From positions 282,227-346,226 of the forward strand of contig JBDRWW010000001.1 in NCBI GenBank assembly GCA_039802605.1: a DNA stretch of 64,000 nt, read 5' to 3'. Under the pieces are notes generated by a model. It did no database searches and was not told the DNA's origin. It saw nothing but the letters and a program-made list of their open reading frames with translations. Shown here piece after piece: positions 19,679 to 48,148 of this stretch; the stretch's first letter is position 1; each line of letters begins with the position of its first letter. A program made the translations under genes and the position numbers. This DNA is from a candidate division WOR-3 bacterium. GTDB lineage: Bacteria > Hydrothermota > Hydrothermia > LBFQ01.

Positions 19679-19751
19679 GGCGGCCGTAGCTCAGCGGTAG
19701 AGCACCAGACTGTGGCTCTGGGGGTCGCGGGTTCGAATCCCGTCGGCCGCC
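19679..19751 (+). tRNA. tRNA-His (anticodon GUG) with encoded G-1
   Basis: manual cloverleaf: G-1 plus GCGGCCG acceptor pairing with CGGCCGC, D-arm GCTCAGCGGTAGAGC, anticodon loop CTGTGGC, T-arm GCGGGTTCGAATCCCGT, discriminator C; CCA not encoded. Confidence 0.85.
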
Positions 19752-43111: not shown

Positions 43112-43942
43112 ATGAAGGTCTTGGGTGTTGATGTCGGAGGGAGTTATACAAAGTTCGTAATTTGGGATGGTGAAAGGGTTTTAAAGAGGGGAAGGTTAAA
43201 GTGGAATTACGGAAGCGATTGGAACGACTTAAAAATATTGGTTGATAAGTTAATGGAAGATTTTGATGTTCATTATGTGGGTTTTGCCATAAGGGGGGTT
43301 TGGACAAAGGGGGAAAAGAAGAAATTGGAAAAGGTATTAAATGGAAAGGTTATAAGCGATGTTGAGGGTGTATTTTTTGATGCTTTTGGCTATGATGAAG
43401 GGATGGTTTTGATAGCGGGTACGGGTTCAATATGCCTTGCAAAGAAGGGGAATAAAACTTTTAGATACGGTGGATACGGTTATCTATTTTCCGATTGGGG
43501 CAGCGCCTTTTGGATCGGAAAAATGGCGGTGGAATTACTGTTAAAAAAGGAGAGTTTTTTGAGAATGGCGATTTTTAGAACGGAAGACTTGGAAAAAATA
43601 AGGTTAAAGGTTAAAAGGATAATGGAATTGGATAGGGGAAAGATGATAAAGAGGGTTGCCTCATTCTCCAAGATAGTTTTGAAGGTTGCCGAAATTGGTG
43701 ATGAGGATGCGAATTACCTTGTAAATTCTGCAATAAGGGAATTGCTCGGAATGTGTATCAAGGTGTATGACATTTCGGGTGTTTCATCCTTGGCCTTGCA
43801 CGGGGGTTTGTTTAAAAGCAAACTTATAAGGGATAGATTTTTAAACTTGGCAAAAAGGTATAATTTTGATATAAAAGGCTACGGATTTGATGGGGCCTTG
43901 GGGGTTGCCAAGTTTATAATGGCATCCGGTGGTCTTAAATAA
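43112..43942 (+). CDS. BadF/BadG/BcrA/BcrD-type ATPase (N-acetylglucosamine kinase-like)
   Basis: 276 aa; ASKHA N-terminal VLGVDVGGSYTK and GTGS motifs. Confidence 0.6.
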   Translation: MKVLGVDVGGSYTKFVIWDGERVLKRGRLKWNYGSDWNDLKILVDKLMEDFDVHYVGFAIRGVWTKGEKKKLEKVLNGKVISDVEGVFFDAFGYDEGMVLIAGTGSICLAKKGNKTFRYGGYGYLFSDWGSAFWIGKMAVELLLKKESFLRMAIFRTEDLEKIRLKVKRIMELDRGKMIKRVASFSKIVLKVAEIGDEDANYLVNSAIRELLGMCIKVYDISGVSSLALHGGLFKSKLIRDRFLNLAKRYNFDIKGYGFDGALGVAKFIMASGGLK

Positions 43943-44496
43943 ACGGGCGTAAAGTTCTCATCCAATTCCTTACCAAAACCTTTAAAAAACAAAATGAATA
44001 GGGAGTGTGCCCTTATATATCCCGTATAGGGTTTATAGCCTTCCAGGTTTAATACATCGGGTTTGTATATACCCAATTCGATAACACCGTCCTCATAAGG
44101 TATTCCGCCTTTTACTTGGAATGTTTGTGCATATATCTCCCCCTTACGGGCATCCAAGTATGCTATGTACTTCCCATCATCCAAACCCACAAGCATACTT
44201 TGTAATGTGTTAAATCCCAACATCGGTATCCCCTTTGATAGGTATAAGGCCTTGGCGAAGGAAGCCGAAACCCTTAAAGATGTGAAAAATCCCGGGCCTA
44301 AGTTTATCAAAAGGATGTTAGGTGGATTTTTGTCAAAATCCACAAATTTTGAAACCAATAAATTTAACATTTCAAGGTGTTTAAATTCTTTTAGGTGAAT
44401 TGCTCCGCGAATTTTACCCCTTTCGTAATAAGCCACTGAGATCCATAAGAAGGATGTATCAACCGCTAAAATAGACTTTTCCCTATTTCCACCCAT
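43879..44496 (-). CDS. tsaB: tRNA threonylcarbamoyladenosine biosynthesis protein TsaB
   Basis: 205 aa; ILAVDTS N-terminus and YeaZ-like fold pattern. Confidence 0.65.
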   Translation of the reverse strand: MGGNREKSILAVDTSFLWISVAYYERGKIRGAIHLKEFKHLEMLNLLVSKFVDFDKNPPNILLINLGPGFFTSLRVSASFAKALYLSKGIPMLGFNTLQSMLVGLDDGKYIAYLDARKGEIYAQTFQVKGGIPYEDGVIELGIYKPDVLNLEGYKPYTGYIRAHSLFILFFKGFGKELDENFTPVYLRPPDAIINLATPKAPSNP

Positions 44497-44828
44497 AACG
44501 GATTACCGGATCCGTCATAAAAACCCCTTAAACCTACAAAAAATCCCGATTTTGCGAGTTTAATTCCGTAATTTATACCCGTGGAATAATTCGCTTTGTT
44601 TTGGATTCTAAATCTACCAAGGGATATACCTAAGAAAGGAGAAAACTCAAAACCTTTTAACTTGGCCTTATAAATTCCCCCAGCATTTAGAACAATCAAA
44701 TCGTAATCCCCATATCCCGCATAAAAAGACCCGTTTGTGTAAAAATATCCCTTATGAAACTCTAAAAAAACACCCGGCCAAAAGTTTTTTATTAAGGCCG
44801 CCAAACCTATGCTTATACCTACGCTCAC
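44466..44828 (-). CDS. hypothetical protein
   Basis: 120 aa; Gly/Tyr-rich, no motif recognised. Confidence 0.25.
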   Translation of the reverse strand: MSVGISIGLAALIKNFWPGVFLEFHKGYFYTNGSFYAGYGDYDLIVLNAGGIYKAKLKGFEFSPFLGISLGRFRIQNKANYSTGINYGIKLAKSGFFVGLRGFYDGSGNPLWVEIGKSLF

Positions 44829-44917
44829 TTCTTGCTCTTGTGCCTCATCTTTTTACGACGCTTCTTCAATTTGTGCCTTTTTATCTTTTTAAGTTTCCTC
44901 TTCCTTCCGCAAGGCAT
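44825..44917 (-). CDS. 30-aa Arg/Lys-rich peptide, candidate bS22/AURKAIP1-family small ribosomal protein
   Basis: not in the ORF track; reads MPCGRKRKLKKIKRHKLKKRRKKMRHKSKK; AAGGAGGG SD 8 nt upstream; ATG overlaps the HU stop (TAATG); KKRRKKM-x-HK motif resembles M. smegmatis bS22 / mitochondrial mS38 C-termini. Confidence 0.45.
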   Translation of the reverse strand: MPCGRKRKLKKIKRHKLKKRRKKMRHKSKK

Positions 44918-45189
44918 TACTTTTCCCTCCTTTTCCTATTTTCTTCTGCTATCATCCTTTGCCTTATTACCTGTGAAAGTTTAAATTTTATCCTCGGAAT
45001 TTTATCTTCGCTTTTTCTCCTCTTCCTTTTAACCGGTATGAATACCCCAAAGCCCCTTAGCTCTATCCTTTCCTGCCTAACAAAGGCTTCTGCCATCTCT
45101 TCAAGAATGGCATCCAATATTTCTACCAATTCCTGTTTTCTCAAACCCGTCCTGTGTTTTAACCTATCAATTAATTCCGCCTTTGTCAT
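44917..45189 (-). CDS. HU/IHF-family DNA-binding protein with basic C-terminal extension
   Basis: 90 aa; MTKAELIDRL..., GFGVF arm motif; K/R-rich C-terminal tail. Confidence 0.65.
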   Translation of the reverse strand: MTKAELIDRLKHRTGLRKQELVEILDAILEEMAEAFVRQERIELRGFGVFIPVKRKRRKSEDKIPRIKFKLSQVIRQRMIAEENRKRREK

Positions 45190-45218
45190 TTCAACCGGAA
45201 TTATAAGGTTGTCTAATT

Positions 45219-46400
45219 TTACGATTTTAGCAACCTCCTTAACAATATCAGCCTTTGAATTTCACTTGTACCCTCGTAAATCTCCGTAACCTTTGCATCC
45301 CTGAAAAGCCTTTGTGAGTTCGTCTCCCTTGAATATCCCATAGAGCCCATTATTTGTATGGCCTTTGTGGTAACCCACATCGCGGTTTCGCTTGCGAATA
45401 ATTTCGCCATTGATGATGCCCAAAAGTATTCTTTGCCGCTATCCTTTAAGTAAGCCGCTCTATAGAGCAATAGCCTTGCCGCCTCTATCTTCATCCACAT
45501 ATCCGCGAGGGTAAAACCCACCGCTTCGTGTTCGTATATAGGCTTTCCGAATGTATATCTGGTTTTTGAAAACTCCTTTGCCTCCTCGTATGCGCCTTCG
45601 GCTATACCGAGGGCCTGGGCACCTATCCCTATCCTACCATCGTTTAGTATTTCCATTGCTATTTTAAATCCCTCCCCTTCTTTTCCCAACACTTCACTTT
45701 CATCCGCCTCGTAATCTTCTAGGATTATTTCCCCACTCCAAGCACCCCTTATACCCAGTTTTTTCTCTTTACTCCCAACCTTCGCCCCGTCCCTCTCCAT
45801 ATCAATTAAAAACGCCGTAATACCATTGTGCCCCTTTTCGGGATCCGTTTGGGCGAAGAATATAACATACTTTGCAACCGGGCCATTCGTTATCCAAACC
45901 TTTTGGCCATTTATGATGTATTTTGATCCCCTTTTTATAGCCCTTGATTTCAAGCTCACCGCATCGGAACCCGTATGCGGTTCCGTTAGTGCAAATGCCC
46001 CTATGTTAATCTTCCCATTTCCCAAACTCTTCCCCGCACTTTCCGGGGATACGAGGGGTACTAAAAACCTCTTCTTTTGCTCCTCCGTTCCAAACTTTTC
46101 CAAGCCATAAGCGTACAATGAATTGTTAACAGAGGCTATTACACCATGGGAGGGACAAACCTTTGAGAGTTCCTCTATAAGGATTATGTAGGCCAATGTA
46201 TCCATACCCGCCCCACCGTATTGGGGAGATACCTTTATCCCCAAAAACCCCAACTCCCCCATCCTTCTAACATTTTCAAAGGGAAATTCCTCTTTTTCAT
46301 CAATATCGGATGCTACCGGTTTAACATACCTTTCAACGAAATCCCTAACCGTTTCCTTCAACATTAAGTGTTCTTCATCCAAGTCAAGGTTTATAGGCAT
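45219..46400 (-). CDS. acyl-CoA dehydrogenase
   Basis: 393 aa; three-domain ACAD pattern, catalytic-base region YEGTSEIQRLI. Confidence 0.85.
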   Translation of the reverse strand: MPINLDLDEEHLMLKETVRDFVERYVKPVASDIDEKEEFPFENVRRMGELGFLGIKVSPQYGGAGMDTLAYIILIEELSKVCPSHGVIASVNNSLYAYGLEKFGTEEQKKRFLVPLVSPESAGKSLGNGKINIGAFALTEPHTGSDAVSLKSRAIKRGSKYIINGQKVWITNGPVAKYVIFFAQTDPEKGHNGITAFLIDMERDGAKVGSKEKKLGIRGAWSGEIILEDYEADESEVLGKEGEGFKIAMEILNDGRIGIGAQALGIAEGAYEEAKEFSKTRYTFGKPIYEHEAVGFTLADMWMKIEAARLLLYRAAYLKDSGKEYFWASSMAKLFASETAMWVTTKAIQIMGSMGYSRETNSQRLFRDAKVTEIYEGTSEIQRLILLRRLLKS

Positions 46401-46953
46401 AAGCGGGAATTATAAAAGGGTTTAATGTGGGATCTCTTCTTCGGCCATCCCGTAGTACAAGAGCCAGAATGTCATCTATATCTCGGCATTACGCTGGGCC
46501 AGCTTTTGCGTGAGGCGAAGCATTGCGCTTAGGCTACCTTTTGCCATCCGTACTTCCTCCGGTGTGGCATAGCGGCGTACATGTGCCCACATGTGCTCCA
46601 AGGCGTTCTGCACGCCGCCTATCGTCGGCTGTTGGCGCAGGATCAGTGTCAGTTCGTCCATTACCGCGGGTAAATCTTCCCGACGAGCCTTGGTCATCCT
46701 GCGGCCCAACTCCCGGTAAATATTCGGAATACTTGTGATGAGCCCAGGCTTGCTGGGGATGCCCCGGTAGCGGGATTCGGCCAGCGGTTCGGGTTAGGAG
46801 GGATGGGCAGGGGTGAGTTATGCCGATATCCGCGCAATTTCATCTCGGCAACCAGCCAGCCATGGCGCACGGCAAGGGCTCCCAGGCAATCCTTCCAGCG
46901 CTTCGTTTCCGGATGGGCGGCGTAACCCCGCCGCCCTTCTAGGTGCACCACAA

Positions 46954-47280
46954 CTAAACACCCCGCAAGGACAATGCTCTACTGCTAACCACGCGGCGAC
47001 GCCCGGCCAGTTCAAAAATCTCATCAAACAGAAAAGGCGCCGTAATAACCGTGGGGCCGCCGTCGAAAACAAATCCATCTTGCTTGACGGCATAGGCGCG
47101 TCCGCCGGGTTTGTCCAACTTCTCAAAAACGACAACATCATACCCCCGCGCGGCAACCGCCAGCCCCCAAAGCCTGTACCGAAACATGTGCACGCCGTGT
47201 AAATACATCATAGTCGTGCGCTTCAATGTCGTCCAGAATGGCGCGATAGAGTTCCGCGGCGGTAACGGCAAACCGCCCAT
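46954..47280 (-). pseudogene. phytoene desaturase (CrtI)-like 5' fragment
   Basis: fragment [55 protein letters not shown] aligns to the CrtI N-terminus, then terminates. Confidence 0.5.
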
Positions 47281-47740
47281 CGCGATGCAAGAAAGCTATA
47301 CCGGGTAAAGATTCTTCATAAAGGCGACGGACACGAGCAATTTGGAAGTGCATAAAGGCTCGCCAGCGTTTATCAACACGTCCTGCGGAAGATATAGCCG
47401 CGTTTAACGGCGTAGGGAATGGCGGCAGTACTCGACAGTAGACGCCACGCCGTAGCAATAGTGTGCCAGGTCTTCGAAAGTGGCATAACGCGTATTGGTT
47501 AGGTCTTTTTCAAGTGCTTCCAAGCAACGAGGACGGGATGATCTTGGACGGTAAGTATTGGCGCCGATCCCCTTCAAGTGTATCCACAGTGTCGTCACTC
47601 ATACGGCAGAAGGCATAAAGTGCGCGGATGGCGCGCCATATAAAACGTACGACTTTTGAGGTATGTAATTTTTTCACACTCGGTATAGGCTCTGCTTGTA
47701 TCGTAATGCGCATGGCCTTACGGATCAAGGATTGCTCCAA
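47138..47740 (-). pseudogene. phytoene synthase (CrtB)-like gene disrupted by frameshifts
   Basis: three overlapping frames carry squalene/phytoene-synthase signatures: [14 protein letters not shown] (47510-47740), [19 protein letters not shown] (47404-47598), C-terminal part (47138-47458). Confidence 0.5.
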
Positions 47741-47777
47741 AAAACGGCTAAAAATCAGACTTTTTTGTATAAGTTAA

Positions 47778-48148
47778 TGGAGGCGGCGGGAATCGAACCC
47801 GCGTCCGAACGGATTACTAACCCCCGGGTGTTTTACAGGCTTAGCCCCTTCTTTCAATTTACATCCCAACCCCTAGGGCGTCGGGGCGATTCCCTTGTGG
47901 GCTGGGACGCCCATTTTTTGAGTTGGTTTCACCCCGGAAAAATGGGGAAAACCGGGGCGAAACCCCCACCCTAAGGGACCCCTTCCGGGCGCCGGGTGGG
48001 GAGCAACCCGGAAGAGGTGGCGGTCAATTAGGCCGCCAAGGCGTAATTCGCGTTCGCACTTATTTTGTTTTTGGGCTTTTTTACGGGGTTGCCCGCCCCG
48101 GCCTGCACCCGGTAGGCTTTCACCCGCCGTCGATACCCTTTCGCCCCC
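47778..48148 (-). ncRNA. ssrA: tmRNA (transfer-messenger RNA)
   Basis: reverse complement starts GGGGGCGAAAGGGTATCGACGG (G3-U70 acceptor pair) and ends GGACGCGGGTTCGATTCCCGCCGCCTCCA; tag ORF GCG AAC GCG AAT TAC GCC TTG GCG GCC TAA encodes ANANYALAA. Confidence 0.85.

Follow-up and report, generated by a model that had tools for sequence, protein, structure and literature searches.

A very probable bS22-type ribosomal protein gene overlapping the end of the HU gene in a candidate division WOR-3 bacterium

The ribosomal protein bS22 is already known from mycobacteria, Cutibacterium, Bacteroidota and Borrelia. The actinobacterial, Bacteroidota and Borrelia proteins share a binding site, the h44/h45 pocket (PMC7797042, PMC10618245), and in M. 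smegmatis the loss of bS22 raises the sensitivity to kanamycin through h44 contacts (bioRxiv 10.1101/2023.03.31.535098). Similarly, the C-terminus of mS38/AURKAIP1/Cox24 (PF08213) and the eukaryotic eL41 occupy the corresponding rRNA pocket with a basic helix (PMC10618245). The bS22 of Borrelia burgdorferi was also unannotated and was discovered from cryo-EM density, mass spectrometry having failed to reveal it, and its authors predicted more unannotated cases; its gene, at positions 867605-867697 of the chromosome, is among the essential-gene candidates, and no HU neighbour is mentioned for it there (PMC10618245). A literature search returned no paper surveying the distribution of bS22 or naming bS22 for WOR-3 or Omnitrophota, a search of this kind being unable to prove absence. 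New here are a very probable, unannotated member of the bS22 family, the conserved pairing of its gene with HU, and the observation that two curated models (NF047430 and PF08213) miss the whole type to which it would belong.

In the window, that is, the whole stretch of 64,000 nt of WOR-3 DNA that was analysed, a minus-strand ORF reads ATG CCT TGC GGA ... AAG AAG TGA from 44917 to 44825 and encodes the 30-aa peptide MPCGRKRKLKKIKRHKLKKRRKKMRHKSKK, as seen both in the sequence and in the ORF list (Table 1). It is the only ORF of its kind within the window, in which no 16S rRNA gene was found. The first-pass annotation had described a 30-codon Arg/Lys-rich ORF with a strong Shine-Dalgarno (SD) sequence and an ATG whose A is also the last letter of the HU stop codon, all of which can be read directly from the sequence; its figure of 73% K/R/H has to be corrected, the count being 21 of 30 residues (70%). 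A GTGA junction at the stop codon is absent from that annotation, and the ORF is overlapped at both ends. AGGAGG-type motifs stand at the equivalent position in the HU-linked relatives, and the -1 overlap (TAATG or TGATG) is also present in nine relatives (L100, L101, L108, L113, L138, L143, L148, L156 and L185). Likewise, a -4 overlap (GTGA or ATGA) with the downstream gene occurs in 24 scanned loci, in which the downstream gene varies, being tsaB, a metallophosphoesterase gene, a UDP-GlcNAc 2-epimerase gene or the 120-aa ORF.

Table 1. Features at and around the putative bS22 gene (positions are those of the window)
Feature	Position	Strand	Evidence and remarks
Very probable bS22 homologue gene	44825..44917	-	ORF; homology to PDB chains; shuffle control; synonymous-only differences; family-wide purifying selection
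Shine-Dalgarno AAGGAGGG	44925..44932	-	Inside the 3' end of the HU CDS; GGAGG ends 8 nt before the peptide ATG
TAATG junction (-1 overlap)	44915..44919	-	HU TAA (44919..44917) and peptide ATG (44917..44915) have one A in common
GTGA junction (-4 overlap)	44825..44828	-	Peptide TGA (44827..44825) overlaps the GTG of the next ORF (44828..44826)
HU-family gene, 90 aa	44917..45189	-	PF00216, E = 7.6e-15, profile positions 1-60 of 90 only; directly upstream of the peptide
120-aa hypothetical gene	44466..44828	-	Between bS22 and tsaB; GTG start
tsaB, tRNA t6A complex subunit	43879..44496	-	TIGR03725, 73.1 bits vs cut-off 69.3; ends the same-strand run
Acyl-CoA dehydrogenase gene	45219..46400	-	Pfam Acyl-CoA_dh N, M and C-terminal domains; 29 nt upstream of HU; synteny in relatives
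Antisense 184-aa ORF	44735..45289	+	Leu/Ser/Phe-rich; frame broken in relatives; no Pfam match

The HU protein of the window, which GenBank names 'HU family DNA-binding protein', is a clade variant that has a shortened beta-arm and a charged C-terminal tail when aligned with other HU proteins. The 120-aa hypothetical protein has no Pfam or NCBIfam match, and its gene is found only in the closest relatives (L143, 46% identity; L148, 87%); L001 and L003-L008 are without it, and there bS22 overlaps tsaB directly. The opposite-strand ORF had been called a low-complexity artefact, a judgement that is borne out by the relatives. Its frame is interrupted in them (the longest run is 42 aa in L001 vs 121 aa in the window), no Pfam family matches it, and it is rejected as a gene; it is an artefact of the purine-rich sense strand. 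A scan for promoters and terminators around the operon gave counts at shuffle level, so that operon boundaries cannot be claimed.

The identical peptide is found in related WOR-3 loci that have other neighbours (HU has 88 aa, the 120-aa ORF is absent and tsaB is overlapped by the peptide stop). The ORF DNA of these relatives differs from that of the window at 12-14 of 93 nt, and all of the differences are synonymous; these relatives had been fetched by their identical protein, and two checks free of that bias were added. One was anchored on HU, and it reached three true orthologues (L009-L011, HU 78-79% identical), with the identical peptide right after HU and the ORF intact in 3/3. This is the conservation behind HU, with no disruption of the frame, that the first-pass annotation had proposed to look for. 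The other 77 loci fetched by HU carry distant HU/IHF genes (<= 48% identity) and no such peptide ORF nearby. The second check was a pattern scan, in which the first 11 back-translated codons (MPCGRKRKLKK, ATG required) were compared with species-representative genomes (MAGs). It yielded 101 stretches, and all 100 of the complete ones stop after 29-34 codons. Over codons 12-29, which are free of the pattern, 98 distinct homologous DNAs give a pS of ~1.0 (saturated), a pN of 0.26 and a pN/pS of 0.26. The residues H15, K18, K19 and R25 are invariant in these 98 DNAs, R25 by way of all six Arg codons. These comparisons of coding sequences indicate that the peptide ORF is under purifying selection at the protein level and is a real gene, not a chance frame.

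With respect to its identity, a phmmer search of the peptide as a single sequence against all PDB chains (177,635 distinct sequences) returned four sequences, all bS22 or mS38. B. burgdorferi bS22 (8FMW_V) was matched with E = 2.4e-6, and with E = 1.3e-12 when a family profile was used (alignment A1, 23 distinct family peptides). Likewise, F. johnsoniae bS22 (7JIL_5, 30 aa, aligned over 1-30) gave E = 0.053 with the single sequence and 6.1e-7 with the profile, and P. gingivalis bS22 (9I5V_10, a chain identified as such partly via PMC12123416) gave 0.13 and 1.9e-4. The sole non-bS22 match in the PDB, Polytomella mS38 (8A22_BC), is marginal (E = 0.37 with the single sequence and 0.16 with the profile), and the profile matched the same bS22/mS38 chains and no others. 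As regards similarity to bTHX (Thermus), eL41 and bL38, no chain bearing only these names was matched at E <= 10 by phmmer or the profile in the PDB. One sequence of the 7JIL group carries both the S22 and the L38 labels of its depositors; the sequence is that of F. johnsoniae bS22.

Because the composition of the peptide is extreme, a shuffle control was run. None of the 5000 composition-matched shuffles reached the observed best ungapped score (z = 11.0 for 8FMW_V, 8.3 for 7JIL_5 and 7.9 for 9I5V_10), and the identities number 21, 17 and 19, respectively, vs a shuffle maximum of 15-16. The motif register M-P-x-G-+-K-R-K, H15-K16, K18-K19 and R25-H26-K27 is matched without change when the peptide is aligned with each of the three solved chains, and the same positions are invariant or nearly so in the 23-sequence alignment and the 98 distinct DNAs. 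The N-terminus MP(C/S/N)G is common to the solved chains, which confirms the start codon. The size is also in agreement, as the peptide has 30 aa and is very basic, and the family members have 29-34 aa vs ~28-33 residues for bS22. The proposal of the first-pass annotation that the ORF encodes a bS22-type ribosomal peptide is thus upheld by the profile matches and the shuffle control; the ORF is very probably a genuine gene for a homologue of bS22 of the type that Borrelia and Bacteroidota ribosomes contain. For this uncultured organism, we infer ribosome binding from homology over ~30 residues of very biased composition.

The first-pass annotation had also suggested a PF08213 search and had seen a resemblance to M. 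smegmatis bS22, and neither lead was productive. With PF08213 (COX24_C) the peptide scores 7.2 bits (E = 6.5) vs a gathering threshold of 23 bits, and NF047430 (threshold 34 bits) has no match to it even at E <= 10. The solved chains of the Borrelia/Bacteroidota type, used as controls, behave in the same manner. NF047430 finds M. smegmatis bS22 with 62.6 bits and none of the solved F. johnsoniae, P. gingivalis and B. burgdorferi chains; PF08213 gives 46.2 bits to M. smegmatis bS22 and 11.8 bits to P. gingivalis bS22, and has no match to those of F. johnsoniae and B. burgdorferi. As these positive controls of its own type are missed too, the negative outcome reflects on the models more than on the peptide. 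NF047430 and PF08213 cover the actinobacterial/mitochondrial type, not the Borrelia/Bacteroidota type, and their failure argues against membership in those two model-defined families, not against a bS22 of the Borrelia/Bacteroidota type. The likeness to M. smegmatis bS22 itself is at the level of chance for such a composition (z = 0.4, with 1736 of the 5000 shuffles scoring as high), and the hhalign comparison of the family profile with M. smegmatis bS22 is uninformative (9% probability, 1 aligned column). A sequence bridge to mycobacterial bS22 is rejected on these values. The actinobacterial and the Borrelia/Bacteroidota proteins have been linked structurally, by a common pocket and a common bent helix (PMC7797042, PMC10618245), and it is on these published structures that a link between the two bS22 types would rest. 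With a model of its own, the Borrelia/Bacteroidota type of bS22 would be recoverable in WOR-3, Omnitrophota, Stahlbacteria, Hydrothermota, spirochaetes and other groups.

The 101 stretches of the pattern scan are labelled as WOR-3 including Caldipriscus (30), Omnitrophota (28), unclassified (15), 'Planctomycetia' (7), Stahlbacteria (5), Bacteroidia/Bacteroidota (5), Spirochaetes (Treponema, Rectinemataceae and Spirochaetia; 5), Hydrothermota (3), 'Thermotogota' (2) and Patescibacteria (1), these names being MAG labels of which some are probably wrong. Borrelia is missing from the set because the pattern required ATG and the Borrelia gene starts with GUG. WOR-3 is usually grouped with the Bacteroidota in the FCB group. 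When linkage is defined as an HU gene ending <= 400 nt upstream on the same strand, HU-linked loci make up 22/30 of WOR-3, 3/5 of Stahlbacteria, 3/3 of Hydrothermota, 2/2 of the 'Thermotogota'-labelled and 9/15 of the unclassified loci. Among the ten WOR-3 and Stahlbacteria loci without HU, four lie within 300 nt of a contig end. The upstream HU genes of the representatives are full-length PF00216 members. No HU gene was found within 2 kb of the loci labelled Omnitrophota (0/28), Planctomycetia (0/7), Bacteroidia (0/5) and Spirochaetes (0/5), and none near the Patescibacteria-labelled locus. In the Omnitrophota- and Planctomycetia-labelled representatives tested, the peptide lies between hisG and a TPR-protein gene, and the neighbour sizes recur. 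The HU-bS22 arrangement is, to state it accurately, a gene pair conserved at the level of lineages and not a universal one.

Several other explanations of the ORF have to be weighed against a bS22 homologue. Either a fortuitous frame in low-complexity DNA rich in A and G or a basic HU tail in a shifted frame could be imagined in a region that is purine-rich and in which long stop-free frames are common, the antisense 184-aa ORF being one example. However, all differences from the relatives are synonymous, the remaining two sense frames are closed in all but 7 and 11 of the 98 homologous DNAs, the ORF has its own SD and ATG, its MPCG N-terminus matches those of the solved bS22 chains, and the peptide occurs apart from HU in other phyla. 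The synonymous-only differences, the family stops at 29-34 codons and the selection in the 98 DNAs refute a chance ORF or a frameshifted HU tail, which is left with next to no probability. A regulatory leader or coupling ORF, passing ribosomes from HU to the downstream gene and encoding a peptide that is itself functionless, would fit well with the -1 overlap at the upstream stop and the -4 overlap at the downstream start, the latter recurring in 24 loci. Nevertheless, an ORF needed for coupling alone would be free to change its amino-acid sequence, whereas here the residues are fixed despite saturated synonymous sites, and on this ground it is rejected; in some lineages, moreover, the peptide is conserved also where its gene is free-standing, separated from both neighbours by 10-250 nt. 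That the ORF serves only as a leader of this kind is extremely improbable.

The neighbourhood of HU invites the further explanation that the peptide is a non-ribosomal, protamine-like binder of nucleic acids acting with HU on the nucleoid, the HU-peptide pair being the functional unit and the likeness to bS22 a shared basic-helix design or a second role. HU directly upstream on the same strand in 22/30 WOR-3, 3/5 Stahlbacteria and 3/3 Hydrothermota loci, with a varying downstream gene, speaks for it, as does the HU of the sub-clade, which lacks ~10 residues of the DNA-embracing arm and could call for a partner. It is nevertheless highly improbable, as HU genes with normal full-length arms are equally linked to the peptide, the Omnitrophota-, Planctomycetia-, Bacteroidia- and Spirochaetes-labelled loci counted above all carry the family without an HU gene within 2 kb, and the closest relatives have been physically modelled inside ribosomes (PMC10618245, PMC7797042, PMC12123416). 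It is also very unlikely that the HU-bS22 dicistron reflects a second nucleoid role of bS22 with HU, most plausibly in the short-arm-HU sub-clade, or a device tying the output of nucleoid protein to that of ribosomes. Much more likely than such a nucleoid or linking-device reading is that this type of bS22 is a widespread bacterial ribosomal protein, carried by MAGs with at least seven phylum-level labels.

The flanking proteins are recorded as MAG proteins of 'candidate division WOR-3 bacterium', and those of the acyl-CoA dehydrogenase, HU and 120-aa genes have consecutive GenBank accessions (MEO0138261/62/63). The exact peptide is missing from the protein collection that contains these flanking proteins and hence is not annotated in GenBank. 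The earlier statement that the ORF is unannotated accordingly holds for GenBank; the gene tables of other pipelines do call the peptide. Called relatives in WOR-3 are labelled 'hypothetical protein', some with over-long N-termini (for example, UCC13161.1 of 51 aa and KPK72316.1 of 61 aa). A phmmer search of the peptide against a representative library of 1.84 billion proteins gave only six matches at E <= 1e-3, because a 30-aa query scores little above 37 bits, and these matches were used only for how relatives are labelled. The bS22 reading would add a ribosomal protein to the genes listed for an uncultured phylum, whose genomes either leave it uncalled or give it as a 'hypothetical protein'. 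It is relevant to ribosomal-protein marker sets and to the biology of the aminoglycoside pocket, and it touches the question of whether bS22, mS38 and eL41 are one universal protein (PMC10618245). No new mechanism is involved, and the mildly new biology is limited to the phylum-level HU-bS22 gene pair.

The geometry of the locus suggests that bS22 would be translated from the same-strand run of HU, bS22, orf120 and tsaB. Ribosomes finishing the highly expressed HU could reinitiate at bS22, which has its own SD and a start overlapping the HU stop, and the -4 overlap of the bS22 stop with the start of the next gene points to expression along the run. HU is typically a very abundant protein, and riding on it would be a plausible route to a ribosomal component in quantity. 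By homology to the solved chains, the 30-residue peptide, 70% basic, should take up a bent alpha-helical fold only once it is bound. The predicted site is the 16S rRNA pocket of h2, h27, h44 and h45 beside the decoding centre, with a predicted contact to 23S H68/H70 on subunit joining. There it may offset the charge of phosphates, confer stability on h44, provide an additional intersubunit bridge and influence the form of the aminoglycoside pocket, the site and roles being those described for the solved homologues (PMC10618245, PMC7797042, PMC12123416, bioRxiv 10.1101/2023.03.31.535098).

Among the known systems, the actinobacterial bS22 (M. smegmatis; NF047430; bioRxiv 10.1101/2023.03.31.535098) is similar to the WOR-3 peptide in size and charge, but it has no sequence similarity to it beyond composition. 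The Polytomella mS38 chain 8A22_BC matches the peptide at RKL-KIKKHKLRKRRK, a marginal similarity (E = 0.16-0.37), and no eL41 chain is matched by the peptide at E <= 10. The Bacteroidota proteins, namely those of Flavobacterium johnsoniae (Fjoh_1533; 7JIL chain 5; PMC7797042) and Porphyromonas gingivalis (9I5V chain 10; PMC12123416), are both exactly 30 residues long and align with the WOR-3 peptide from end to end without a gap. They share with it the MPxG+KRK, HK+KK+ and RHK motifs and 17 (F. johnsoniae) or 19 (P. gingivalis) identities. Residue 3 differs, being Cys in the WOR-3 peptide vs Ser or Asn in the Bacteroidota, and so do residues 9-14, LKKIKR in the former vs RHKVAT or RHKMAT in the latter. 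The five Bacteroidia/Bacteroidota-labelled loci of the scan are without an SD, whereas the WOR-3 gene has a strong SD and, judging from its geometry, a putative coupling to HU. The bS22 of Borrelia burgdorferi (bb0822; 8FMW chain V; PMC10618245) has 28 modelled residues vs 30 in the WOR-3 peptide, and its gene starts with GUG (PMC10618245) whereas the WOR-3 gene has an ATG and a strong SD. The N-terminal 12 residues of the two proteins, MPCGRKRKLKKI, are identical, the H15-K16, K18-K19 and R25-H26-K27 positions are common to both, and 21 of the 28 residues are identical overall.

Among the related loci compared, the tmRNA gene (ssrA) and the acyl-CoA dehydrogenase (ACAD) gene are direct neighbours without a spacer, save in L002, which like this strain carries a GC-rich block between them (Table). 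The GC content of the block is about 52% vs. about 40%, and its content consists of foreign-gene fragments only. The two copies, in this strain and in L002, share 99% identity and differ in length by 11 nt. The other related loci compared (L148, L001, and L003-L008) lack the block; the tmRNA of L148 is 96.5% identical to that of the window. The block appears to be the decayed remains of an insertion that came from a GC-rich donor and used the classic ssrA integration site.

Features of the window, in order of position
Feature	Position	Strand	Details
tRNA gene	19680..19751	+	Rfam RF00005, 71.5 bits
BcrAD/BadFG-type ATPase gene	43112..43942	+	convergent with tsaB
Overlap of the tsaB (-) and ATPase gene 3' ends	43879..43942		64 nt
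120-aa ORF	44466..44828	-	Gly/Tyr/Phe-rich, last residue Phe
HU gene	44917..45189	-
GC-rich block	46401..47774		1.37 kb, exactly fills the gap from the ssrA 3' end to the ACAD gene
Block fragments	within 46401..47774		two phytoene synthase pieces, a phytoene-desaturase-like N-terminus, partial Pyr_excise and DUF1722 domains
tmRNA gene (ssrA)	47775..48148	-	Rfam RF00023, 163.7 bits, full length

The HU encoded next to bS22 is a variant in which the PF00216 match is limited to positions 1-60 of 90. In this sub-clade HU has a beta-arm shortened by about 10 residues and lacking the RNPxTGE segment, plus an extra charged helical tail, VIRQRMIAEENRKRREK. The variant is not a pseudogene, since it has been kept at 67-97% identity across 10 related genomes. 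On the other side of bS22, the 120-aa ORF, which has no match in Pfam or NCBIfam, is inserted before tsaB in the closest relatives only (87% identity in L148 and 46% in L143) and, where present, takes over the GTGA junction with bS22. Outside this group the bS22 stop overlaps tsaB directly. The convergent arrangement of tsaB and the ATPase gene is the same in relatives.

Among the 101 bS22-bearing stretches from species-representative MAGs, two loci labelled Thermotogota (L138 and L161) show the order WOR-3-type HU (75% identical), bS22, tsaB, and L182, labelled Patescibacteria, encodes a peptide of the Omnitrophota type; the taxon labels of these three MAGs are probably wrong. The bS22 gene also occurs on two separate contigs of one MAG in STA_84 (L093 and L131) and in binchicken_co6_478 (L150 and L179), which could reflect either two gene copies or mixed bins.

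Loci labelled Omnitrophota or 'Planctomycetia' (L092, L094, L098, L103, L105, L110, and others) place bS22 in another recurring context, and their peptides have W16 or a longer C-terminus (...RHLKKRDWG). In L094 the gene lies between hisG (ATP phosphoribosyltransferase) upstream and a TPR-protein gene downstream, and many other loci with these labels have comparably sized neighbours (about 291-303 aa upstream and about 320-330 aa downstream). In the five loci labelled Bacteroidia or Bacteroidota (L107, L126, L160, L167, and L188), the ORF downstream of bS22 is 514-515 aa long in all but one. No Shine-Dalgarno sequence was found at bS22 in these five; in its place, a TTTG motif precedes the ATG by about 10 nt, which agrees with the SD-independent initiation of Bacteroidia.
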